From positions 1-57,701 of the forward strand of contig DATDYB010000010.1 of assembly GCA_036517115.1 (NCBI GenBank): a stretch of DNA of 57,701 nt, given 5' to 3'. The position numbers were made by a program, and so were the translations under genes. This document shows, in pieces, positions 333 through 39,078 of this stretch. Source of the DNA: Minisyncoccota bacterium. GTDB lineage: Bacteria; Patescibacteriota; Minisyncoccia; Phycocordibacterales; PALSA-1337. Within the stretch, counting starts at the first letter, position 1. Each line of letters starts with the position of its first letter. A model generated the notes under the pieces. It searched no databases. It saw only the letters and a list, made by a program, of their open reading frames with translations, and had not been told where the DNA came from.

Positions 333-470
333 ATGAATAATCTACAAGACACTTCAGTCAGTGAAATTGTTCTAACAGATCCATACGAAGGAGAGGGAAT
401 CGAGGCGGTCACGGTGAACGGAGCAACTCTCATTTTATTCGAAAGAATGTTCAATTTCTCTCTCAACTGA
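333..470 (+). CDS. hypothetical small protein (45 aa)
   Basis: ATG333..TGA470, below the ORF-track cutoff, read by eye (MNNLQDTSVSEIVLTDPYEGEGIEAVTVNGATLILFERMFNFSLN). The ATG lies inside the 3' arm of a perfect 13-bp hairpin (285-297/329-341). Confidence 0.2.
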   Translation: MNNLQDTSVSEIVLTDPYEGEGIEAVTVNGATLILFERMFNFSLN

Positions 471-494
471 ATCTACAACAGGAGTTCTTTTACA

Positions 495-638
495 ATGAAA
501 CCAGAAACCCAACTCAAGGCGATGAAGTCGGTGCGCAAGCACACGATCTTCGTCGGGAAACCCCACAGTTCGCCGAAAGGTGAACGTGGATACAACCGCA
601 AACGCGAAAAACAAAACTGGAGAAAGGAGACCGTATGA
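495..638 (+). CDS. hypothetical small basic protein (47 aa)
   Basis: ATG495 is preceded by AGGAG (480-484). The stop TGA636-638 overlaps ATG635 of the next ORF (ATGA coupling). Read by eye; below the track cutoff. Confidence 0.3.
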   Translation: MKPETQLKAMKSVRKHTIFVGKPHSSPKGERGYNRKREKQNWRKETV

Positions 639-940
639 AAATCTTCATGGATATCGGAGACACGAAATATGTTCGAGAGGCGATCGAGCAGATCTTCACC
701 ACAACGGGTCAACTCGAGTTCGTGTCCAAGGTTCAGGAGGCCGACGCTATCATCGTGTCGGATCCTGAAAAAGTCGAGGTGTACTTGGAACACACTGATA
801 AGCGCGTGGCCCAGTTACTCTGGTGGAAACAAAGACCTTCGACTGCTCCGCAAGGAGATCGGTTCAAAGTTTTTGACGCCCTCGAGGCCAAAAAACTGCC
901 GGGCCTCATTGAGGCAATCAAATTCCTTAAAGGGGAATAA
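635..940 (+). CDS. hypothetical protein (101 aa)
   Basis: ORF-track entry with GGAGA upstream, translationally coupled to the preceding small ORF. No family recognised. Confidence 0.55.
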   Translation: MKIFMDIGDTKYVREAIEQIFTTTGQLEFVSKVQEADAIIVSDPEKVEVYLEHTDKRVAQLLWWKQRPSTAPQGDRFKVFDALEAKKLPGLIEAIKFLKGE

Positions 941-990
941 CGTGTGCCGTATCACACGCAGTCACAACGGTTGATCATACGGGATCAACC

Positions 991-1050
991 ACTGCTCTCC
1001 GGATGAAGTCCGGACTGACGAGTCCTTACGCAGATTCAGGACGAAAGCAG
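991..1050 (+). ncRNA. type III hammerhead ribozyme (HHR-A)
   Basis: Stem III 5' strand ACUGCU 991-996, cleavage-site C997. Stem I is UCCGGA/UCCGGA (998-1003/1009-1014, loop UGAAG). Core CUGACGA 1015-1021; stem II GUCC/GGAC (1022-1025/1039-1042); GAA 1043-1045; stem III 3' strand AGCAG 1046-1050. All invariant core positions are present. Confidence 0.8.
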
Positions 1051-1107
1051 AGTTTTGGAGGTTTCACCTCCAAAAAACTAGGTTCTTTAAAATTCAAAGT
1101 GTTCATT

Positions 1108-1168
1108 GGTTGATTGGTGCAATAAGGTCGTACGCCTTAGGCGGATTGCTTTATTGCATCAATCAACC
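1108..1168 (+). promoter_or_regulatory. long hairpin in the 5' leader of the receiver-like gene
   Basis: An 18-bp stem GGTTGATTGGTGCAATAA (1108-1125) / TTATTGCATCAATCAACC (1151-1168) with one G-U, and a structured 25-nt apex. It ends 19 nt before ATG1187. Confidence 0.5.
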
Positions 1169-1186
1169 ACAAACCAAAAAGGAAAA

Positions 1187-1816
1187 ATGAACACGAAACT
1201 AAACATCCTCGTCGTCGAAGACAAACCGGAAAACATCGCCGCAGCTAAAAAAATGCTTGCGGATCACAACCTCACCGTTGTCTCAGGGTTCGATGACGCG
1301 CTCACCGCGCTCAAACGAAACGGTTACGCGCGTAGGAAAGTGGAAGCGCCGGAGAAATTCGACGTGGTCCTCACCGACTGCCTGTATCCCAAAGGCGGCA
1401 CTGCTTGTATGGGACCCCGAGGGGAAGCAGTCGTTAACTGCCAAGGCGAAATGCCCTACGGCCCCATGGTGGTGTTTCACGCTATCGAAGCTGGAGTACC
1501 GCACATCGGGCTCATTACCCAAGGCAACCACCATGACGATCCGTTCGTCTTTGCGCTCGACAGCCTCAGAGGCTTCAAGAGTGAGAAGGTGAGTGTCGTC
1601 GTCACCAATGAGTGCGGCGAGTGTCTACACAAGGATACTCTCGAGGTTGTGGAGTACGACCACCCTAACGGCGAAAAGTTCTACGCATTGGAGAAAGAAG
1701 GAAAACTTCTTCGGGTGAAGAACTGGAAAGAGCTTCTCGACCGTACGTTGGGAACCCACGAGGTTACTGAGGACGGGAAGTGGCGCGAAGAACGCCGCGC
1801 ACAAGTCCAGATCTAA
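1187..1816 (+). CDS. receiver (CheY-like) domain protein, atypical, no output domain
   Basis: MNTKLNILVVEDKPEN...FDVVLTDCLYP resembles a REC N-terminus with acidic pocket and phospho-acceptor Asp context; the rest is divergent. ATG1187 with AAAGGA upstream was chosen over the track start 1106, which lies inside the hairpin. Confidence 0.55.
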   Translation: MNTKLNILVVEDKPENIAAAKKMLADHNLTVVSGFDDALTALKRNGYARRKVEAPEKFDVVLTDCLYPKGGTACMGPRGEAVVNCQGEMPYGPMVVFHAIEAGVPHIGLITQGNHHDDPFVFALDSLRGFKSEKVSVVVTNECGECLHKDTLEVVEYDHPNGEKFYALEKEGKLLRVKNWKELLDRTLGTHEVTEDGKWREERRAQVQI

Positions 1817-1855
1817 CTCTGGAGAGGTAGGGCGACTACCATCAATTGTCGCGAC

Positions 1856-1881
1856 CCGCAAACATTCGTTTGCGGTTTTTT
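1856..1881 (+). terminator. rho-independent terminator
   Basis: CCGCAAAC-ATTC-GTTTGCGG followed by TTTTTT. Confidence 0.8.
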
Positions 1882-1961
1882 ATTAGTAAATTCACACCTG
1901 TTAATATCTGTCTTTGTTTTTTTAGTATACTAACCTCATCGTTATTTAATTAATTTAAACC

Positions 1962-2510
1962 ATGGAAGAAAAGAAAGAGGAGAAAAAAGACGACTTTACA
2001 ATTTTTGATGATAACGGAGCACTAGTTAAGTTTCTCTCCGGCATTCTAGATAAAGGGAGTGCTCTTGTTCATCACGCCGACAGCCAAACTAACATTCTGA
2101 TGGGAATCAGTTCTGCTATTTTTATTTTCTCACTTTCAAGTTCACTGCAACGAGGTCATATGGAAATTCCTTTTCTCATCCTCATTCTTTTCAGCGCCTT
2201 TTCGTCATTAGCAGGTCTTTACGCCATTCATCCTCCACGTTTCATGCGAAAGAAGCAACAAGAGGAGAGCGTTATGTATAACAAAAAGATCTCTGATTTT
2301 ACCTCTTCCGACGACTATTTCAAGGTTCTCTGGAGCGTCATGTTAAACCGAACTGAAGTTGTCCGGCAGTACTCGATGGAAATCTATAATTTATATAAAT
2401 ATAACTACGGACCTAAACGAAAACTCTTTAAATTGGCGAGAAATCTTTTAATCGCGGGTCTGGTCTGCAGCCTTCTTTCATTTTTATTTATTACGTCCAA
2501 AACTTTTTAG
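1962..2510 (+). CDS. three-TM membrane protein, possibly DUF5706 / Pycsar-effector-like family
   Basis: Acidic N-terminus, then HHADSQTNILMGISSAIFIF and two further hydrophobic helices. The family assignment is from memory of the motif only. Confidence 0.55.
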   Translation: MEEKKEEKKDDFTIFDDNGALVKFLSGILDKGSALVHHADSQTNILMGISSAIFIFSLSSSLQRGHMEIPFLILILFSAFSSLAGLYAIHPPRFMRKKQQEESVMYNKKISDFTSSDDYFKVLWSVMLNRTEVVRQYSMEIYNLYKYNYGPKRKLFKLARNLLIAGLVCSLLSFLFITSKTF

Positions 2511-2527
2511 TTTATTTCGACAAGCGA

Positions 2528-2741
2528 GGTGAGGAAGCGGAGCTTCCGCAAGACTTTGAGCGTTCCGTCTGCGGAATGCGAGAAGTGTACCGTTCCTGTA
2601 AGGAAATCGCGGACGCTTTCCGATGCGGACATGAAATCCGAGTCGATGTCGAATCAAAAGGTGAGAAGCGAATACTTGGAGCTTCGCAAGACTCTGAGCG
2701 TTCTTTCGGAAGAATGCGAAGAGTGTACTGAACCTGTAAGG
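2528..2741 (+). repeat. tandem pair of ~80-nt structured repeat units (family 2, orientation a)
   Basis: Units 2528-2603 and 2660-2741 share GGTGAG-AAGCG..GGAGCTTC(C)GCAAGACT..hairpin..GTGTAC-N-CCTGTAAGG. They are the reverse complement of the units at 18464-18662. Confidence 0.7.
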
Positions 2742-2804
2742 TTGCATACCCCGCGACCCTGTCGCGGAATTTGGGTCCAGGGCTTGCTTTAGGGTAAATA
2801 CCTT

Positions 2805-3545
2805 TTATAGCTTTCCGTACAGTAACTTAAATATTTTCTTCTGAAAGTCAGCGAATTTTTCGTTTTCAATAACGAAACTTGTCTCAGTATTGAGGTCAAC
2901 AACCGCCACCTTGTGTCCGTAAATGAGCTGGATGATATTCTGATCGAATAAATCAAACTCTGAGGGTATAACTTTTGTCTTTTGGTTAAAATCGGGCTCG
3001 ACGTCCGCTTCTGTAGCTTTACTGCGTATCACATATCGTTCTAGATTTTTATTGTCTCTTTTTTCTCTATAATCTTTCGGTAAATATTTATTGGTTCTAG
3101 CCCGATCTTTCGATGAGGAATACCGGTAAAAAGCATCCCCTTTCTTGAGAGAGTCGACGATGTCTGAATACACCGATGAAATACCATTCCTTCCTTCGAG
3201 GAACTTTATGATGGGCTTATCTTTAGGTGCACGATAGAGATCTTCGAGGTCGGGTAGTGTTTCCTCAATATCTATACTCATTTCGCGCAATAACCCCCTA
3301 ATTTTCTCGGGATGTTCGGCAATATACTGTTTTCTCTTACCTTTTATGGTGATTGTTATAAGTTTGCGTTCTAGCAACAAGCCAAGCGCTTTGTAGACAA
3401 TTGGCCTGAACGTGCCTATATCTTTGGCTATATCGGAGATTGAAAGGGAAGTGCCTCGTTCTAAAAGATGGAGATACACTATTGTTTCAGGGTGGGTGAG
3501 CCCCAACTTCGTAAACAATTCCTTTATTTTATCAATTTTATCCAT
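2805..3545 (-). CDS. TrmB-family (winged-helix) transcriptional regulator
   Basis: The N-terminal wHTH (LGLTHPETIVYLHLLERGTSLSISDIAKDIGTFRPIVYKALGLLLERKLI) is typical of the TrmB family. Confidence 0.8.
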   Translation of the reverse strand: MDKIDKIKELFTKLGLTHPETIVYLHLLERGTSLSISDIAKDIGTFRPIVYKALGLLLERKLITITIKGKRKQYIAEHPEKIRGLLREMSIDIEETLPDLEDLYRAPKDKPIIKFLEGRNGISSVYSDIVDSLKKGDAFYRYSSSKDRARTNKYLPKDYREKRDNKNLERYVIRSKATEADVEPDFNQKTKVIPSEFDLFDQNIIQLIYGHKVAVVDLNTETSFVIENEKFADFQKKIFKLLYGKL

Positions 3546-3708
3546 ATTTGTATTAAATTAATTACACTTTTAGTTACTGAAAATACCCTTTTATAAAGCC
3601 ATAAATTTTATTAGTGCCCTTACTTACGTACATATTGTACTCCATACTATTACAATTTGTCAACTCTTCTGGTAGTCTTATGGGTAGAGGCTCTTCACAA
3701 CAAACAAT

Positions 3709-3717
3709 CCCCCCCCC
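3709..3717. repeat. C9 homopolymer tract
   Basis: Nine consecutive C residues end 16 nt upstream of ATG3734. The tract lies at the junction of two overlapping open frames (3614.. and 3657..). Confidence 0.9.
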
Positions 3718-3733
3718 AACAGAAAGGAAAAGT

Positions 3734-3916
3734 ATGCCAGATCGCGACAATAACAACGAACGCACTAGCGAATCCAGTTACCAGCAGCAACGAGATGCAT
3801 ACGATGACCGCTGGAGGTCATGGTTGCGCGGAAGCAGCACCGGTATGGACATCGACGGGCGGTGTATCAACCCCCGCGACAGCAGTTGCGATAGCAACGA
3901 ACGCGAGGAGTGCTAA
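3734..3916 (+). CDS. small charged Cys-containing protein (60 aa)
   Basis: ATG3734 has a good RBS (AAAGGAAAAGT). The RNY-like codon pattern favours this frame. The longer GTG/TTG-initiated versions in the track are not supported. Confidence 0.4.
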   Translation: MPDRDNNNERTSESSYQQQRDAYDDRWRSWLRGSSTGMDIDGRCINPRDSSCDSNEREEC

Positions 3917-3951
3917 ATGACTTACAGTTTGAGGGTCTGACCAAAACCCTC

Positions 3952-4033
3952 TCTGTCTCGAGATGTGTATCTCGACTGATGATTCCAGTCTTCGCTAAAG
4001 CTACGGCTTGGCAAGGCAAAAGGATGAAACAGA
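3952..4033 (+). ncRNA. type III hammerhead ribozyme (HHR-B) with enlarged stem II
   Basis: Stem III UCUGU 3952-3956 / ACAGA 4029-4033, cleavage-site C3957 (GUC). Stem I is UCGAGAU/AUCUCGA (3958-3964/3969-3975). Core CUGAUGA 3976-3982. Stem II is UUCC...GGAU (3983-3986/4022-4025) with a ~35-nt insert. GAA 4026-4028. Positions 10.1/11.1 form a U-U pair. Confidence 0.7.
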
Positions 4034-4112
4034 AGTTCTATGACACAACAACAAAAAGAAAGGTAATGCTATAAACATCAATTCATTAACTAACCTGTTA
4101 GAAGAAAATGGC

Positions 4113-4622
4113 GTGTCCACCAAAACATGGGGGACTGGAAAAGCGAAAACAATCCACCACCTACTCTCCGAAATTCAAGAGGGTGAAACTGTTCTGGAAG
4201 AGACGGAAAAAGGACTGGTCCGGAAAACCTCATTCCTCACCATCCATGTTTTATACAAGGATGAACGGGGAACGTTCAAACTCTTCGAGGAAAAACAAGT
4301 GTTCACGGACGGTAGAACACGAACACGAGATCAATCATGGAGCGTGGCAGAGAAGATGAAGGCCACCGACGTGAATATCCAGGCAGCCGCATTAAGAGCC
4401 CTTGAAGAAGAGTTAGGAATTATGACAGGAGTGAAATTTTTGGGTGAGATAACAACCACCGACGAACTCCGAGAATCACCATCATATCCCGGACTCACCG
4501 CGCAGTTCAAGATGTTCAACCTTACGGTGCACATCGACTATCATGAGTATCGGCCTGATGGTTACACGGAAGTACAGGAAGATAAATCAACGTACTTCAA
4601 ATGGAAGCATGTGGAACCTTAA
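4113..4622 (+). CDS. NUDIX-family hydrolase-like protein
   Basis: Partial Nudix box ...AALRALEEELGI... in a 169-aa protein. Start is GTG4113. Confidence 0.6.
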   Translation: MSTKTWGTGKAKTIHHLLSEIQEGETVLEETEKGLVRKTSFLTIHVLYKDERGTFKLFEEKQVFTDGRTRTRDQSWSVAEKMKATDVNIQAAALRALEEELGIMTGVKFLGEITTTDELRESPSYPGLTAQFKMFNLTVHIDYHEYRPDGYTEVQEDKSTYFKWKHVEP

Positions 4623-4667
4623 TCTGTTCCCATCGCTAAAAGGTTTGCTCGTTCCCTCAAAACGAGC

Positions 4668-4718
4668 TCTGTATCGAGATGCAGGTCTCGACTGATGATT
4701 CCAAAAGGATGAAACAGA
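4668..4718 (+). ncRNA. type III hammerhead ribozyme (HHR-C), minimal
   Basis: Stem III UCUGU 4668-4672 / ACAGA 4714-4718, cleavage-site A4673 (GUA). Stem I is UCGAGAU/GUCUCGA (4674-4680/4685-4691). Core CUGAUGA 4692-4698. Stem II is UUCC-AAAA-GGAU 4699-4710. GAA 4711-4713. Confidence 0.75.
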
Positions 4719-4781
4719 AATACTTTTTACACAACAAACAAACCCGACATCAAATAGATATCATCCACAACAAAGATTGCT

Positions 4782-5180
4782 ATGAAATACACTGATTACG
4801 ATCTCCGATTATGTGCAGGTGAAGAGTGGCTTCCCTCTAGTGAAGATACGCGTATGAGTTGGCGCAAGGCGATGGAGAAAACGTTACAAGATCCGAACCT
4901 ACGACTACCCCATTACTCTGATTTAATCCACGCTGAAGAAATGGCTCGGAAAAAACCGGAACTTCGTGAAAAATTTGGTGAATTGCAGAAAGGTTGGCCA
5001 TACTGGAGCGCCAACTCTGAAAATCATGATCCAAATTCAATGTATGCCTGCATTGTGACAGAGGATCATCTGCATTATAAATCACATACTCAAAAATACC
5101 TGGGGTACATGGTGAGATTCATTCGACAAACGAATCCAAAGAGCGTGGATAAATCACACAATAACGTAACAGAAGTATAA
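4782..5180 (+). CDS. DUF1566 (Lcl C-terminal)-like protein
   Basis: The pattern ...LRLPHYSDL...YWSANS...MYACIV...GYMVRFIRQ matches the remembered WRLP...YWSS...VR.VR signature. Confidence 0.5.
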   Translation: MKYTDYDLRLCAGEEWLPSSEDTRMSWRKAMEKTLQDPNLRLPHYSDLIHAEEMARKKPELREKFGELQKGWPYWSANSENHDPNSMYACIVTEDHLHYKSHTQKYLGYMVRFIRQTNPKSVDKSHNNVTEV

Positions 5181-5198
5181 GCTCAAAAATTTCAATTA

Positions 5199-5228
5199 CC
5201 TCTACAATAAATTGTAGGGGTTATTTTT
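5199..5228 (+). terminator. rho-independent terminator
   Basis: CCTCTACAAT-AA-ATTGTAGGGG followed by TTATTTTT. Confidence 0.8.
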
Positions 5229-6790: not shown

Positions 6791-7357
6791 ATGACACTAC
6801 AATACATTTCAGAGCGGGTTAAAAAGAATACTGAGAACGTGACGGGTCTTCACAACGAAATTTGGGGGGACTTTGCGCATATCAAAGGCAACGTTGCTCA
6901 TATTTACGGCGACGTAAGTATGCACAAACTCAAAGGTGATGTCTCGAACATTAAAGGTGATATTACCGGCGTATTTGGAAATGTAAGCAATATCCTCGGC
7001 GATGTATCACATATCCGAGGAGATCTTACTCTTATAAAAGGAAACGTAACGAACATCACCGGCGATTTGACCGGCATACTTGGCGACGTTTCCAATCTAC
7101 GCGGTTCAGTTACTGATATTCGCGGGGATGTGAGTAATATCCGGGGGGATGTAAGTGATTTGATTGGAAATGTTTCTCTTTTAAAGGGTGAGGTGTCTAA
7201 TATTGAGGGAAATGTGACGGATTTACGCGGTGATACAAGCAATATTTCCGGAAATGTCACTAATATCGAAGGTGATGTGAGTAATCTCAAGGGGAATGTG
7301 ACAGGAATTGAAGGTGACGCAAACGGACTCTCTGGAGCAGTAAAAGAAGTAGTGTAG
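6791..7357 (+). CDS. heptapeptide-repeat protein (G-[DN]-V-[ST]-[ND]-[IL]-x, 23 units)
   Basis: 23 consecutive units, 22 of them exactly 7 aa (GDVSNIK GDITGVF GNVSNIL GDVSHIR ...). No signal peptide. The repeats differ strongly at synonymous sites. Confidence 0.75.
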   Translation: MTLQYISERVKKNTENVTGLHNEIWGDFAHIKGNVAHIYGDVSMHKLKGDVSNIKGDITGVFGNVSNILGDVSHIRGDLTLIKGNVTNITGDLTGILGDVSNLRGSVTDIRGDVSNIRGDVSDLIGNVSLLKGEVSNIEGNVTDLRGDTSNISGNVTNIEGDVSNLKGNVTGIEGDANGLSGAVKEVV

Positions 7358-36585: not shown

Positions 36586-39078
36586 CTATTCTAATTTAAG
36601 TCGAACCGTCCCTTCTGTTATTTTCTGTGCTGTATCAGTTACAATCGCCCGTAACTTATTATCTTCATTTATTTTCTCATAAGGTCTTGGGGTGAACGAA
36701 AAGGTGTTTCCGGTAGACGAGCCCACAAACTTCTCGTTGAGATATATATCCATTTTAGAAAGTGGATCAACACCCGAATAGTTGATAGTTACTATCAATT
36801 TTTCGTTTCTGTTGTATCGAACATTTGGGTTAGGGGAAATGAAACTGATTCTGGAGGTGTTTGCAGTGGTATTAATAGCGCTCGCCTCTACAGGGACTAC
36901 CGCGGCCCCCTCATCAGGTATGCTAGCGTTTAGAGCCCAATTGCGTACACTCCACTCCCAGAGAGGGAATTGAGGGTCATTAGCAGGGTTCGATGGAGCT
37001 TCTCCTTGTGGGTCATCTTTATCTACCCAATAAAGAATTGAATGAACACCACGTACGACTCGTTCCTCTCTAAATTCTGGTGGTGTGTTCTCAGTCGCCT
37101 GTGCTCCTGTAAGTTTATCCACGATATATGTTGTACCTCCCGTCCAAACTCCCCGAAGAATCGGTTTGATAGCAGGGTCGACAGGTTCAGGGTCGGAAAA
37201 GCGCTCTTCTGGAAGATTTTTTAATACTTCAGTGATGAAGGTGTTCCATGTTGGCGCAACCACTAGTCCCGCCACTTTCTTCTCGATAGAGGAGTTGTCG
37301 TTGTTGCCGGCCCATGCGCCCACTACAATCTGAGGTGTGTAGCCAAGTATCCAAGTGTCCCGATAGTCGTTAGTGGTTCCTGTTTTTGCTGCTACTTGTC
37401 GTCCAGGAACATTTAATTTTGAGTTTACGCCGAATACAGGCGCCCGTGCGGCATTGTCAGAGAGAATGCTCGAAATAATTCGAGCAGTGTTTTCTGGTAA
37501 GATTCTTTTAGGATTACTTTCATATTGTTCGATGATATTTCCTTTGTTGTCTTCGATTTTAAGAATAGGTGTTGAGGGGTTGCGGATACCGTCGTTGGCG
37601 AATACGCCGTAGGCACTCGTCATTTCAAGTAGTGAAACGTCGGCACCCCCAAGCACTAGAGAAAGCCCATATCTGCTCGCATCACCTAAGCTCTCTACCC
37701 CCATATCTTTAGCGGTGTTGAGCGACTCCTGGACACCGGTAAGATACAAAAGTTTAACTGCGGGAATGTTGATTGACTGTGCAAGAGCGTTACGAAGTGT
37801 CATTGGTCCTCTTGTTTTGTCGTCGTAGTTTCCTGGTGAGTAGCAGCCGTCTTCACTGGTCATGTTTTCTGCTCCACAACTCGGAACGAATTGCGTTTTG
37901 AGGTCAAAGAGAACTGTATCTTGAGTGTATCCTTTATTAAAGGCGGTGGCATACACAAACGGCTTAAATGATGAGCCTGGTTGTCGGAAAGCGGTGGCGA
38001 CATTGAAGTTACCTTCAATACTCTTATCAAAATAATCACGGGAACCAACCATAACAAGAACCTGGCCAGTTTTAGGGTCGATGGCGGTTAACGCGGCGTT
38101 GGTGGCGTGATTCTCAACTGCGTTACGGAGCGCATCTTTCTTTACTATTTCCTCCGCTTTTTGCTGTAAAGCATAATCGAGAGTGGTGGTGACTTTAAGC
38201 CCCCCTTCTTCTACCATAGACTCGCCATACTTTTCCATAAGGTAGTCTCGGACATAGAATACGAAATGAGGCGCGCGGATGCCTTTATCATCCGCAACTT
38301 GGAAACTGATCTCCTCGCCTTGTGCCTTTGTGAATTCACTATCGGTAATGAATTCATTTTCCAACATTTTTTTAAGTACAAGATTGTGGCGATCAGTCAG
38401 CTCTTTTTTATGTTTGCCGTAGGGTGAGTAGTAGGTAGGTGCCCGGAGCATTGCGGCAAGGTACGCAGACTCAGCCAAGCTAATGTCTTTAGCACTTTTA
38501 CCAAAATAGGAACGAGAGGCCTCTTCGATGCCGTACACACTGCCGCCAAAAGGCATTTCGTTGAGGTAGAGCGAAAGAATCTGTTCTTTTGAGAGAGAAC
38601 GTTCAAGTTTAAGAGCAAGTACCCACTCCTTGAGTTTACGGGTAAGAGTTTTATCACCAGTGAGAATGGTGTTCTTTACTACCTGCTGCGTGATGGTAGA
38701 GCCGCCTTGTGAATACTCACCAGCTTTTAGGTTTGCAATAACAGCACGAAGAATTGCCTTGGGTTTGATGCCAAGATGGTCGTAAAATTCAGGGTCTTCT
38801 ATGGCGACTGTTGCGTTTTTTGCGTTACGAGAGATATCTTCAAATGGGACAACGGTGCGCTTGGTATTTTCATGGATATCATAGAGAAGGATGCCATTTC
38901 GGTCTAAAATTTTAGTTGACTGAAGCACTCTACGTTTATCAAATGAGCCTAGATCAGGGATTTTGAGGGTGGAGAGCCACACAATGAAGAGGCCGGAGAA
39001 GGCGATTCCGAGGGCGATACATAGGACAATAATGTTCTGAAGTGCCCTGTTGCGGGCGAGAAACCGATGCTTTTTCAT
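36586..39078 (-). CDS. bifunctional penicillin-binding protein 1A (glycosyltransferase/transpeptidase)
   Basis: EDPEFYDHLGI, GGSTITQQVVKN and RKLKEW (GT51 domain). SSFKPFVY, SIN and KTGTTND (transpeptidase domain). Confidence 0.94.
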   Translation of the reverse strand: MKKHRFLARNRALQNIIVLCIALGIAFSGLFIVWLSTLKIPDLGSFDKRRVLQSTKILDRNGILLYDIHENTKRTVVPFEDISRNAKNATVAIEDPEFYDHLGIKPKAILRAVIANLKAGEYSQGGSTITQQVVKNTILTGDKTLTRKLKEWVLALKLERSLSKEQILSLYLNEMPFGGSVYGIEEASRSYFGKSAKDISLAESAYLAAMLRAPTYYSPYGKHKKELTDRHNLVLKKMLENEFITDSEFTKAQGEEISFQVADDKGIRAPHFVFYVRDYLMEKYGESMVEEGGLKVTTTLDYALQQKAEEIVKKDALRNAVENHATNAALTAIDPKTGQVLVMVGSRDYFDKSIEGNFNVATAFRQPGSSFKPFVYATAFNKGYTQDTVLFDLKTQFVPSCGAENMTSEDGCYSPGNYDDKTRGPMTLRNALAQSINIPAVKLLYLTGVQESLNTAKDMGVESLGDASRYGLSLVLGGADVSLLEMTSAYGVFANDGIRNPSTPILKIEDNKGNIIEQYESNPKRILPENTARIISSILSDNAARAPVFGVNSKLNVPGRQVAAKTGTTNDYRDTWILGYTPQIVVGAWAGNNDNSSIEKKVAGLVVAPTWNTFITEVLKNLPEERFSDPEPVDPAIKPILRGVWTGGTTYIVDKLTGAQATENTPPEFREERVVRGVHSILYWVDKDDPQGEAPSNPANDPQFPLWEWSVRNWALNASIPDEGAAVVPVEASAINTTANTSRISFISPNPNVRYNRNEKLIVTINYSGVDPLSKMDIYLNEKFVGSSTGNTFSFTPRPYEKINEDNKLRAIVTDTAQKITEGTVRLKLE

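Follow-up and report, generated by a model that had tools for sequence, protein, structure and literature searches.

Does this bacterial chromosome carry genuine hammerhead ribozymes between the genes of its small operons and, if so, what would they do to the transcripts that contain them? In a first-pass annotation, the window (the whole stretch of 57,701 nucleotides analyzed here) had been read as holding three type III hammerheads on one strand, each in a spacer between co-directional genes of a CPR-like genome. A motif descriptor, a covariance model and related loci bore out the three ribozymes, and the nearest homologues, named Patescibacteria or Portnoybacteria, agree with the proposed host. 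Their cores, the covariation of their stems and their recurrence at matching junctions in other genomes confirm, on sequence grounds, that these are three genuine type III hammerheads on the + strand.

Hammerhead motifs in the gene spacers

The descriptor located HHR-A at 992-1050 (+), with a G10.1-C11.1 pair, HHR-B at 3952-4033 (+), with U10.1-U11.1 and a 35-nt insertion in loop II (3987-4021), and HHR-C at 4668-4718 (+), also with U10.1-U11.1. All three have a complete type III core, comprising CUGANGA, GAA, A15.1-U16.1 and an H17 that is not G. HHR-A is built from stem III (CUGCU/AGCAG), C997, stem I (998-1014), CUGACGA (1015-1021) and stem II (1022-1042). The corresponding parts are UCUGU/ACAGA, C3957, 3958-3975, CUGAUGA (3976-3982) and UUCC...GGAU in HHR-B, and UCUGU/ACAGA, A4673, 4674-4691, CUGAUGA (4692-4698) and UUCC-AAAA-GGAU in HHR-C. 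These alignments place the putative cleavage sites at 997/998, 3957/3958 and 4673/4674, precisely where they had been predicted. Against three descriptor matches in the window, 300 dinucleotide-shuffled versions of it averaged 0.01.

A search of 6 kb with the Rfam model RF00008 gave a mixed result: it matched HHR-C (33.6 bits, E 2e-4) and HHR-A (31.8 bits, E 7e-4), but both fell under the gathering score of 48.5, and HHR-B was missed because of its 35-nt insertion. Our own covariance model, R1, scored HHR-C at 71.6 bits, this copy being in the training set, HHR-A, which lies outside that set, at 40.0 bits (E 7.6e-10), and HHR-B at 28.5 bits (E 3e-6). No fourth R1 match was found in the 57.7-kb window, where the remaining hits were no better than E 0.5. 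HHR-A in its hammerhead fold comes to within 0.4 kcal/mol of the MFE. The MFE structure of 3928-4036 is the upstream hairpin plus the HHR-B hammerhead fold (-32.8 kcal/mol), and that of HHR-C likewise combines hairpin and hammerhead; the loop II insertion could retard the folding of HHR-B. Natural hammerheads that open stem II with a U10.1-U11.1 mispair are known, and this mispair supports more cleavage than any other (Perreault et al. 2011, PMC3088659). It occupies the metal-binding base pair, where, according to mutational work cited there, it gives less activity than G-C (PMC3088659).

More than 150 distinct copies of this ribozyme subclass were found in Patescibacteria genomes and in viral or marine contigs, with Saccharibacteria and Paceibacterota MAGs as the main hosts. 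The copies usually carry a hairpin flush against stem III, and clusters of two to four ribozymes on one strand of an operon are common. All CPR copies were missed at the Rfam threshold.

Two transcription units and their relatives

The window's cluster comprises two transcription units, each closed by a canonical intrinsic terminator. Unit 1 runs from a 101-aa gene of unassigned function (635..940, +), upstream of HHR-A and without a Pfam or PHROG match, to a REC-like (receiver-domain-like) gene downstream of it (1187..1816, +), and ends at 1856..1875 (+) in an 8-bp stem followed by TTTTTTATTA. Homologues of the REC-like gene, whose Pfam Response_reg match (E 0.001) is below cutoff, come from Patescibacteria and are named response regulator or CheY-like. 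Unit 2 comprises a small Cys-containing ORF of 60 aa (3734..3916, +), a Nudix-like gene between HHR-B and HHR-C (4071..4622, +) and, as the final cistron, an Lcl_C/DUF1566-like gene (4782..5180, +); its terminator lies at 5198..5221 (+). The start of the Nudix-like gene is uncertain, the first canonical start being GTG at 4113 while homologues align from about 4071. The genes that had been labeled Nudix and DUF1566-like are present, but their Pfam matches (E 0.0011 and, for Lcl_C, 8.6e-4) are weak and below cutoff. The A/C-rich leaders described after HHR-B and HHR-C were found, as were the listed neighbors: a TrmB-family regulator divergent from unit 2 (2805..3545, -; Pfam TrmB E 2.7e-7), a C9 tract (3709-3717), a Pycsar-effector-like membrane protein (PycTM-like; PADLOC E 1.3e-7) and a PIN and MazE/AbrB-type pair.

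We searched for the module in related metagenomic loci (L-numbered), whose proteins are 51-80% identical to those of the window, and all three ribozymes recurred at the corresponding gene junctions. In L193, L195 and L198 (58-80% identity), HHR-A separates the 101-aa and REC-like genes, and homologues of the 101-aa gene (62-76% identity) occupy the same position. The junction is shared with L193/L194, L195/L196 and L198/L199, and stems I and II covary. In L185 and, at 51% protein identity, in L006-L009, the Nudix-like gene is enclosed by HHR-B and HHR-C; in L006 the syntenic HHR-B copy lacks the insertion and a syntenic HHR-C copy is present. By tblastn, the Nudix-like gene is 51-55% identical to hammerhead-flanked genes in L006, L023, L173 and L185, and the TrmB regulator is 65% identical to the equally placed TrmB of L006. 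These two genes are kept among relatives, whereas the ribozyme-adjacent genes differ: neither the small Cys ORF nor the Lcl_C/DUF1566-like gene is homologous to the L006 gene in its position (86 and 175 aa, respectively).

The anticipated conservation of core and stems was found at these homologous loci, with compensatory changes in stems I and II and in the hairpin. Among 48 distinct 51-nt copies, 94.7% of cells were paired compared with 72.9% in shuffles, and changes on both sides occurred in 13 of 16 pairs, with slid controls at 33-52%. Intact cores and covarying stems across loci of 51-80% identity indicate purifying selection on the RNA. Homologous loci without ribozymes also exist, both for the REC-like gene (L197) and for the Nudix-like gene (L001-L005); since these loci manage without it, the module is dispensable.

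The same selection argues against the idea that the ribozymes are relics of mobile or phage DNA, brought in with horizontally transferred cassettes and either persisting although they do nothing for the host or serving mainly as recombination points for cassette shuffling, an origin that we consider unlikely. It would account for the turnover of ribozyme-adjacent genes next to a retained TrmB and Nudix-like gene, for a possible decayed copy at 195-285, and for the 39 IMG/VR viral contigs and the cultured Pseudomonas phages that carry the subclass. However, none of the cluster proteins has a PHROG match, the window shows neither an integrase nor a phage structural gene close by, and the REC-like locus sits with PNPase and ComM in a chromosomal neighborhood conserved between the window and L197. 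The description of the region as accessory or mobile-derived is weakly upheld: adjacent gene content does vary, but the missing PHROG matches and integrase speak against it.

Hairpins and boxes around the ribozymes

Each ribozyme is preceded by a short hairpin. Hairpin A (969-990, +) has 8 bp and a 6-nt loop, hairpin B (3931-3951, +) has 6 bp (GAGGGU/ACCCUC), and hairpin C (4647-4667, +) has 7 bp (GCUCGUU/AACGAGC) and a 7-nt loop. The claim that they directly abut the ribozymes holds for B and C, which are flush against stem III, but A ends 1 nt before it, and B ends at 3951 rather than 3950. The arms of hairpin A show compensatory changes between the window (GGUUGAUC/GAUCAACC), L195 (GGUUGAUU/AAUCAACC) and L198 (GGUCGAUU/AAUCGACC). 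Hairpin B is found likewise in L006, L023, L173 and L185, and the stem of hairpin C is fully compensated relative to that of B. Across 155 distinct copies of the subclass, 51% had a stem of 7 bp or more ending no more than 4 nt from stem III, versus 4% of shuffles. Where the stem had 5 bp or more (104 copies), the distance to stem III was 0 in 83. None of the pre-ribozyme hairpins has a U-tract, and terminator prediction did not call hairpin A. In line with the proposed hairpin-plus-ribozyme module, the upstream hairpin belongs to the module and is conserved with it; it is not a terminator, the real terminators starting at 1856 and 5198.

Spacer A holds additional elements. A hairpin immediately 3' of the 101-aa gene stop codon (CGUGUG-CCGUAU-CACACG; 941..958, +) is kept in L195 (CACAUG/CAUGUG) and L198, where its arms carry compensatory changes. 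HHR-A is followed by an extra hairpin (1053..1075, +), seen only in the window and L193, by a copy, GTTCTTTAA (1082..1090, +), of the conserved downstream box GWTCTTTRA, and by a long hairpin with 31-nt arms in the REC-like gene leader (inverted repeat I1; 1107..1169, +), conserved in L193, L195 and L198. The 141-nt segment containing all three (1050-1190) folds at -52.1 kcal/mol (z -7.1). A box-like GTTCTATGA with one mismatch lies 1 nt past HHR-B (4035..4043, +).

Such elements raise the question of whether the ribozymes are conditional, that is, regulators rather than constitutive processing sites, with the pre-ribozyme hairpin, the box and the spacer-A leader hairpin switching the hammerhead or the ribosome-binding site through alternative pairings or a bound protein. 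In about 33 distinct CPR copies, the box keeps both its sequence and its fixed spacing of 1-4 nt from the ribozyme; it also complements AAAGGA-type Shine-Dalgarno sequences. Spacer A is conserved across all 247 nt, with four hairpins plus the ribozyme, and GGUUGAU from the 5' arm of its pre-ribozyme hairpin is seen again in the long leader hairpin. However, a search for a pairing partner of the box returned none above permuted controls, the box is degenerate after HHR-C and missing from viral and marine-metagenome copies, and the hammerhead fold of HHR-B and HHR-C is already the MFE. We regard a conditional switch as improbable.

Proposed operon processing and its precedents

The anatomy suggests that the hairpin and hammerhead module probably splits CPR operon mRNA into separate cistron mRNAs. 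Between one cistron and the next come a short hairpin lacking a U-tract, a flush type III hammerhead and a leader, an order that makes plausible the proposed operon processing, with a protective 3' hairpin upstream and a 5'-OH RNA downstream. The hammerheads would fold during transcription of the operon and cut 3' of H17 at the three sites. The upstream RNA would end in the hairpin and UCUGUH with a 2',3'-cyclic phosphate, and 3' exonucleases and tailing enzymes would act poorly on such a 6-nt tail, which has no 3'-OH. The RNA downstream would begin with a 5'-OH and carry the folded ribozyme stems I and II, then an A/C-rich leader free of structure and the ribosome-binding site, and stability and translation of the separate mRNAs would no longer be mutually dependent. 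We infer cleavage of the HHR-A, -B and -C RNAs, end protection by the hairpin and an effect on expression, the protective role being argued from anatomy. A further possible role of the flush hairpin is to stack on the short, 5-bp stem III and to keep the upstream coding sequence from drawing the ribozyme into misfolded structures. Promoters inside the spacers are possible; a consensus promoter scan is uninformative for this phylum.

Cleavage might instead serve excision, with the ribozyme pair freeing an RNA of the Nudix-like gene that an RtcB-type ligase circularizes or joins to another RNA. Cleavage by hammerheads would by its mechanism give the 5'-OH and 2',3'-cyclic phosphate ends, the window, L006 and L185 all keep a ribozyme on each side of the gene, and the possibility was raised by Perreault et al. 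2011 (PMC3088659); yet these authors sought spliced or circular products and found none, and many modules are single, which makes this very unlikely. Finally, chance resemblance has practically no standing: the Rfam scores do fall short of the gathering threshold, but a descriptor expectation of 0.01 per window, R1 E-values reaching about 1e-9 for a copy on which the model was not trained and syntenic conservation with compensatory changes stand against it, and we rejected it because the comparative data already rule it out.

Separation of cistrons by an intercistronic cut has parallels. In phage T7, early genes are divided by RNase III sites, at which the cut leaves a 3' hairpin that stabilizes the upstream mRNA. 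The outcome proposed here is similar, by analogy and not homology: in T7 a host protein enzyme cuts a long duplex, whereas here the RNA would cut itself, leaving 2',3'-cyclic phosphate and 5'-OH ends. RiboJ, a synthetic insulator engineered from plant satellite RNA, places a hammerhead and a hairpin before the RBS and likewise frees the 5' end of a cistron from whatever sequence precedes it, giving context-independent translation. Its hairpin is downstream of the ribozyme, in contrast to the upstream hairpin here, which would be retained on the upstream fragment. For bacterial twister ribozymes, a different class, proposed targets are the 3' UTRs of mRNAs or polycistronic transcripts, also with processing suggested and its purpose undefined (PMC6765202).

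The closest precedent removes the novelty that the first-pass annotation saw in hammerhead operon processing, since the idea and in vitro tests were published in 2011 (PMC3088659). The kind is already known because that paper described gene-flanking clusters and tested processing of polycistronic mRNA in vitro. Several hammerheads flank individual genes in prophage regions of Agrobacterium tumefaciens, Azorhizobium caulinodans and Clostridium scindens, and they were proposed to cut long transcripts down to mRNAs the length of a single gene or an operon; native polycistronic fragments of about 2 kb were cleaved in vitro, the A. tumefaciens one also in E. coli (Perreault et al. 2011, PMC3088659). 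Those clusters and the window share a single strand, co-directional genes and flanked genes that vary between instances. However, the earlier clusters have prophage or integrase contexts and mixed hammerhead types, whereas those of the window are all type III, with flush hairpins, in Patescibacteria chromosomal operons in which no phage genes were detected. A term search of the PMC3088659 main text found no mention of a flush upstream hairpin. The phage PaP3 hammerhead was tested in that work and is listed there among active core variants.

The U-U subclass is also carried by Pseudomonas phage DL54, of the genus Bruynoghevirus. From the shared genus, we take DL54 to be PaP3-like. Its stem II is UUCC-AAAA-GGAU with the U-U mispair beside the core, as in HHR-C, and it shares with the subclass the loop I UGUGUG, a 5-bp stem III and an intergenic position directly before a gene start. 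DL54 differs in having a single ribozyme, a stem III that overlaps the start codon and a larger upstream structure, whereas CPR copies combine a short hairpin flush against stem III with the GWTCTTTRA box. The range of CPR hosts, the inclusion of a flush hairpin in the module and the conserved box that follows CPR copies appear to be previously undescribed.

Three hammerhead ribozymes in two transcription units

The 57.7-kb window is a segment of bacterial chromosome that encodes DnaA, PolA, PNPase, a class A PBP, ComM and a type II/IV secretion ATPase, together with one tRNA. The nearest homologues of local proteins are labelled Patescibacteria (the candidate phyla radiation, or CPR) or Portnoybacteria; the description of this genome as CPR-like in the first-pass annotation is therefore reasonable and was borne out. 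Within the first 5.3 kb, we identified two transcription units on the + strand, each ending in a canonical intrinsic terminator recovered by a terminator scan (1856-1875 and 5198-5221, both +). In unit 1, small ORFs and a 101-aa gene (635-940) are followed, after a 247-nt spacer, by a receiver-domain-like (REC-like) gene (1187-1816). Unit 2, divergent from a TrmB-family regulator on the - strand (2805-3545), begins with a 60-aa ORF (3734-3916), continues with a Nudix-like gene (~4071-4622) and ends with an Lcl_C/DUF1566-like gene (4782-5180). The spacers between cistrons contain no terminator-like site, canonical terminators being found only at 1856 and 5198; a promoter consensus scan leaves room for internal promoters.

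We searched the window with a descriptor, a sequence and structure pattern for type III hammerheads that requires CUGANGA, a closed stem II, GAAA, a closed stem I, a non-G H17 (the nucleotide 5' of the predicted cut) and a stem III. Exactly three full type III hammerheads were found, at 992-1050 (A), 3952-4033 (B) and 4668-4718 (C), and dinucleotide-shuffled windows gave 0.01 matches per window. All three lie on one strand, A separating the 101-aa and REC-like genes and B and C flanking the Nudix-like gene; relatives carry 2-4 per operon. The core positions C3 U4 G5 A6 N7 G8 A9 and G12 A13 A14, the A15.1-U16.1 pair and the non-G H17 are complete in A, B and C, which read CUGACGA or CUGAUGA and GAA, close stem III with A-U, and have C, C and A, respectively, as H17. 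Stem I has 6-7 bp, stem II 3-5 bp and stem III 5 bp; stems I and II are closed by loops and stem III is open. When only the hairpin and ribozyme were folded, the hammerhead was the MFE structure for B and C and lay within 0.4 kcal/mol of it for A. The cleavage sites assigned in the first-pass annotation, 997/998, 3957/3958 and 4673/4674, are right as predicted positions.

The 10.1-11.1 pair is G-C in A and U-U in B and C, and so is not Watson-Crick in the latter two; both read U10.1 opposite U11.1, with UUCC-NAAA-GGAU, and U-U is also present in 39 of 48 aligned relatives. Perreault et al. (2011; PMC3088659) report that a U-U mispair at this position allows more cleavage than any other mispair, and that the phage PaP3 hammerhead was tested as an active core variant. 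U-U being a published natural variant, the non-Watson-Crick pair does not exclude B and C from the hammerheads. Among 48 copies, U13 and G14 of loop I are invariant and the adenines of loop II invariant or nearly so; the loops differ in A, and B retains AAAA as an internal loop. These invariant positions are compatible with a putative loop-loop tertiary contact.

A scan with the Rfam type III model, proposed earlier as a check, succeeded in part. In a 6-kb search, Hammerhead_3 (RF00008) matched C (33.6 bits, E 2e-4) and A (31.8 bits, E 7e-4) and missed B, whose loop II has a 35-nt insertion, and both matches fall under the gathering score of 48.5 bits. Across 18 related loci, no hammerhead reached that score, canonical G-C copies included, and Rfam at the gathering threshold returned tRNAs only. 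The RF00008 threshold is too strict for this hammerhead subclass, and standard annotation misses these hammerheads, none of which reaches the gathering threshold. From 48 distinct relatives we also derived a covariance model, R1, which was run unfiltered over the whole window and found only A, B and C: C, which is within the training set, scored 71.6 bits (E 8.7e-20), A, which is outside it, 40.0 bits (E 7.6e-10), and B 28.5 bits (E 3e-6), its 3' half being misaligned because of the insertion.

Two further sites deserve mention. A fourth descriptor match on the - strand (36846-36954) was rejected as chance, as it lies inside the PBP gene, has only 3 bp in stem III, is weak in stem II and is unseen by R1. 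Separately, 195-285 holds a possible decayed fourth module: the loop of a hairpin at 200-223, UCUACUUAAA, is that of the pre-ribozyme hairpin in the related locus L017, GTTCTCTAC stands at 270-278, and the stretch between them, to which R1 is blind, can be aligned to a hammerhead whose core is mutated and whose stem II is deleted.

Conservation of the ribozymes and their flanking elements

Conservation of core and stems in homologous loci, which the first-pass annotation had proposed to look for, was found in syntenic copies at the related loci L006-L009, L185, L193, L195 and L198. The metagenomic contigs L006-L009 carry Nudix-like homologues (51% identity) in a layout of divergent TrmB gene, small ORF, Nudix-like gene and another gene, with a hairpin and hammerhead unit in both spacers flanking the Nudix-like gene and compensatory changes in stem I. 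L185 has its Nudix-like gene (53%) between two hammerheads, in an operon that contains four. REC-like homologues in L193, L195 and L198 (80, 65 and 58% identity) are separated from a 101-105-aa gene by a hammerhead with the CUGCU/AGCAG stem III of A, and these copies show covariation in stem I, in stem II and in the pre-ribozyme hairpin. Hammerheads are absent near the more distant Nudix-like homologues of L001-L005 (38-40% identity) and the REC-like homologue of L197 (61%).

Pairs were counted in 48 distinct 51-nt copies. Standard pairs fill 94.7% of pair cells, versus 72.9% in shuffled and 33-52% in slid controls, a percentage inflated because the sequence collection required part of each stem. 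This requirement does not affect the slid controls or the double changes, and both sides have changed in 13 of the 16 pairs. The observation of three hammerheads was accurate, with descriptor, R1, synteny and covariation in agreement. Judged from sequence, A, B and C are real ribozyme motifs; they are members of a kind already known, found in a host lineage for which they are undescribed and accompanied by two conserved accessory elements.

The first of these elements is a hairpin at 969-990 (A), 3931-3951 (B) and 4647-4667 (C); the first-pass coordinates were right for A and C and off by one for B. In 51% of the 155 distinct copies with enough upstream sequence, a perfect stem of 7 bp or more ends no further than 4 nt from stem III, versus 4% after shuffling, and where the stem has at least 5 bp (n=104) the distance to stem III is 0 in 83. 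The stems vary with compensation, for example GAGGGU/ACCCUC in B and GCUCGUU/AACGAGC in C, and the same holds for the stems at junction A, GGUUGAUC/GAUCAACC, GGUUGAUU/AAUCAACC and GGUCGAUU/AAUCGACC. The hairpin is thus part of the module. A reading of the three hairpins as intrinsic terminators was rejected, as A-CUGCUC or UCUGUH follows them with no U-tract and the terminator scan calls none. The hairpin is predicted to remain on the 5' cleavage product, followed there by a tail of just 6 nt with a cyclic phosphate at its end. We infer that the hairpin protects this product, or else aids the 5-bp stem III by stacking. The left flank of the hairpin is often RGTTY, like the start of the second element.

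This second element is a box, GWTCTTTRA, located 1-4 nt 3' of the ribozyme in ~33 distinct CPR copies (L006, L010, L017, L195 and L198 among them) and not seen after viral and marine-metagenome copies. In the window, it is intact after A (1082-1090), where an inserted hairpin displaces it; the form after B (4035-4043) has one mismatch, and that after C is degenerate. A reading of the box as a general 5'-UTR signal of this genome was rejected, the window holding 4 matches versus 4.0 expected. A search for a pairing partner gave no clear signal with the left flank, where the duplex energy of -2.3 kcal/mol (-2.1 shuffled, -1.7 permuted) is slightly better than the permuted control and equalled by the composition control, and no clear signal with the hairpin loop (+0.2 vs -0.1 in the control). 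By eye, pairing with loop II and the 3' strand of stem II, or with the Shine-Dalgarno sequence, can be drawn in many copies, not all. The flanking RGTTY (left) and RGTTC (right) were also considered as a target-site duplication; they are alike across loci rather than locus-specific, which is unlike a classic duplication.

The whole 247-nt spacer before the REC-like gene (941-1186) is conserved in L193, L195 and L198, and the 141-nt segment 1050-1190 has a fold z of -7.1. The spacer also contains a hairpin straight after the stop codon (941-958) with compensatory changes, the inserted hairpin (1053-1075), found in the window and L193 only, and a hairpin with 31-nt arms (1107-1169), long enough for an RNase III-type substrate.

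Distribution, gene context and candidate role

The U-U subclass was sought in three collections with the pattern CTGANGATTCC-N(4-34)-GGATGAAACAGA, which leaves stem I, the 5' strand of stem III and the hairpin unspecified. With one genome per species, we retrieved 25 loci. Of these, ~19 are complete hammerheads, almost all of them from MAGs of Saccharibacteria, Paceibacterota or unclassified Patescibacteria; the rest are chance matches inside genes. IMG/VR viral contigs gave 39 loci and metagenomes at least 119, with many TARA or 'marine metagenome' records among the matches listed; the parts outside the pattern are present in almost all matches listed. Over all retrieved loci there are at least 164 distinct hammerheads, frequently in clusters of two to four on one strand, and canonical G10.1-C11.1 copies share clusters with U-U copies in L027, L030, L195 and L198. 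Pseudomonas phage DL54 (Bruynoghevirus), which we take to be PaP3-like by its shared genus, carries UCGGGAUGUGUGUCCCGG-CUGAUGA-UUCCAAAAGGAU-GAA, which belongs to the subclass of B and C and stands immediately ahead of a gene start.

Some individual loci stand out. L027 (Saccharibacteria) has three hammerheads within 800 nt (- strand, 7693-6889), the first two ~90 nt apart, and the four of the single L185 operon span 6260-4008 on the - strand. About nine U-U core matches, including L075, L081, L139, L160, L170, L104, L132 and L140, lack a stem I hairpin in the stretch from UCUGU to CUGANGA; in L160 and L170, a strand complementary to the pre-core bases sits, by eye, 3' of ACAGA. These matches may be a different RNA, of permuted or unknown topology.

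A prophage or defence island was rejected as the setting of the window cluster: PHROG profiles matched none of eight cluster proteins to any phage family, and PADLOC gave one match only, an orphan PycTM-like membrane protein. A prophage or integrase context is typical of the clusters of Perreault et al., without strictly defining them, whereas the window has no PHROG match and carries chromosomal housekeeping genes. Which genes adjoin the ribozymes varies from locus to locus. The window and L006 have kept the TrmB (65%) and Nudix-like (51%) genes in common, their first and third genes being unrelated, and the gene that follows the Nudix-like gene across the hammerhead is a different one in each of the window, L006/L173, L023 and L185. 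Pfam gave one receiver-domain match among ten ribozyme-flanked proteins of other loci, the rest having no match. In 15 distinct CPR loci, the ribozyme operon has a TrmB-family gene upstream, either divergent from it or co-directional. These genomes are densely populated with TrmB paralogues, and in a control from the TrmB side, with loci chosen regardless of ribozymes, hammerheads occurred in one of five homologue loci, the closest (L201, 75% identity); we therefore regard the link as suggestive only.

Perreault et al. (PMC3088659) describe the expected cleavage of ~2-kb native fragments from three bacteria and cleavage of A. tumefaciens constructs in vivo in E. coli. Polycistronic processing by clustered hammerheads has already been proposed in print, and so the ribozyme-based operon processing whose novelty the first-pass annotation had implied is the standard hypothesis (PMC3088659, PMC6765202); a 2019 review restates the idea and notes that more work is needed to define the purpose of bacterial hammerheads (PMC6765202). 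Operon processing is an accepted hypothesis, and a candidate role, for A, B and C. Our finding leaves the known mechanism and this general idea unchanged and would not surprise a ribozyme specialist; it is useful for annotation and offers a handle on the role of bacterial hammerheads.

What seems to be undescribed is the Patescibacteria host lineage, the flush hairpin and the GWTCTTTRA box. Searchable literature, which misses most subscription journals, yielded no discussion of hammerheads in Patescibacteria or the candidate phyla radiation, co-mentions concerning unrelated subjects, and a term search of the main text of PMC3088659 found no mention of a flush hairpin. The U-U subclass is common in CPR chromosomes at conserved gene junctions, under purifying selection and away from obvious prophages, and the 5' hairpin and 3' box hint at the fate of both predicted cleavage products. 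A further reading, which we advance tentatively and consider rather improbable, is that hairpin, hammerhead and box form a lineage-wide Patescibacteria cassette for mRNA maturation, one that would set both ends of individually stabilised cistrons in operons often headed by TrmB, its copies serving as seams for gene-cassette exchange. If true, the maturation-cassette reading would assign bacterial hammerheads a definite function in the cell, in a phylum now open to genetics. According to PMC10633639, some Saccharibacteria are now cultivable and genetically tractable, which makes the processing and stabilisation model testable in a native host.

Other features of the window and related loci

Between TrmB and the first well-supported gene, few or no genes are called over 1-2 kb in L198 (1529-3548), L195 (1649-2722) and L193 (2178-4444). 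These stretches contain or abut hammerheads in L198 and L195, none was found inside that of L193, and Rfam at the gathering threshold returned nothing in the three; very small genes or non-coding RNA may be located there.

In unit 2, the first canonical start of the Nudix-like gene is GTG 4113, and its homologues (189-196 aa) align from ~4071. From 4044 to 4112 the reading frame offers no ATG, GTG or TTG. At 4066 there is an ATG (ATG CTA TAA) preceded by a good Shine-Dalgarno sequence and shifted by one base from that frame. This points to a frameshift or an error of assembly, to a non-canonical start, or to reinitiation. A nine-C run in the 5' leader (3709-3717), 17 nt before the small ORF start, is a candidate slippage-prone tract. 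The PycTM-like gene (1962-2510; PADLOC E 1.3e-7) forms its own unit after the 1856 terminator, with no adjacent cyclase gene. The 294-nt gap between it and the convergent TrmB gene has no convincing ORF and contains a 57-nt direct repeat (2547-2603 and 2685-2741, 81% identical), which may be a small RNA or repeat element. Finally, a 188-aa ORF at 6791-7357 is composed nearly entirely of short repeats of the G(D/N)V(S/T)N(I/L) type.
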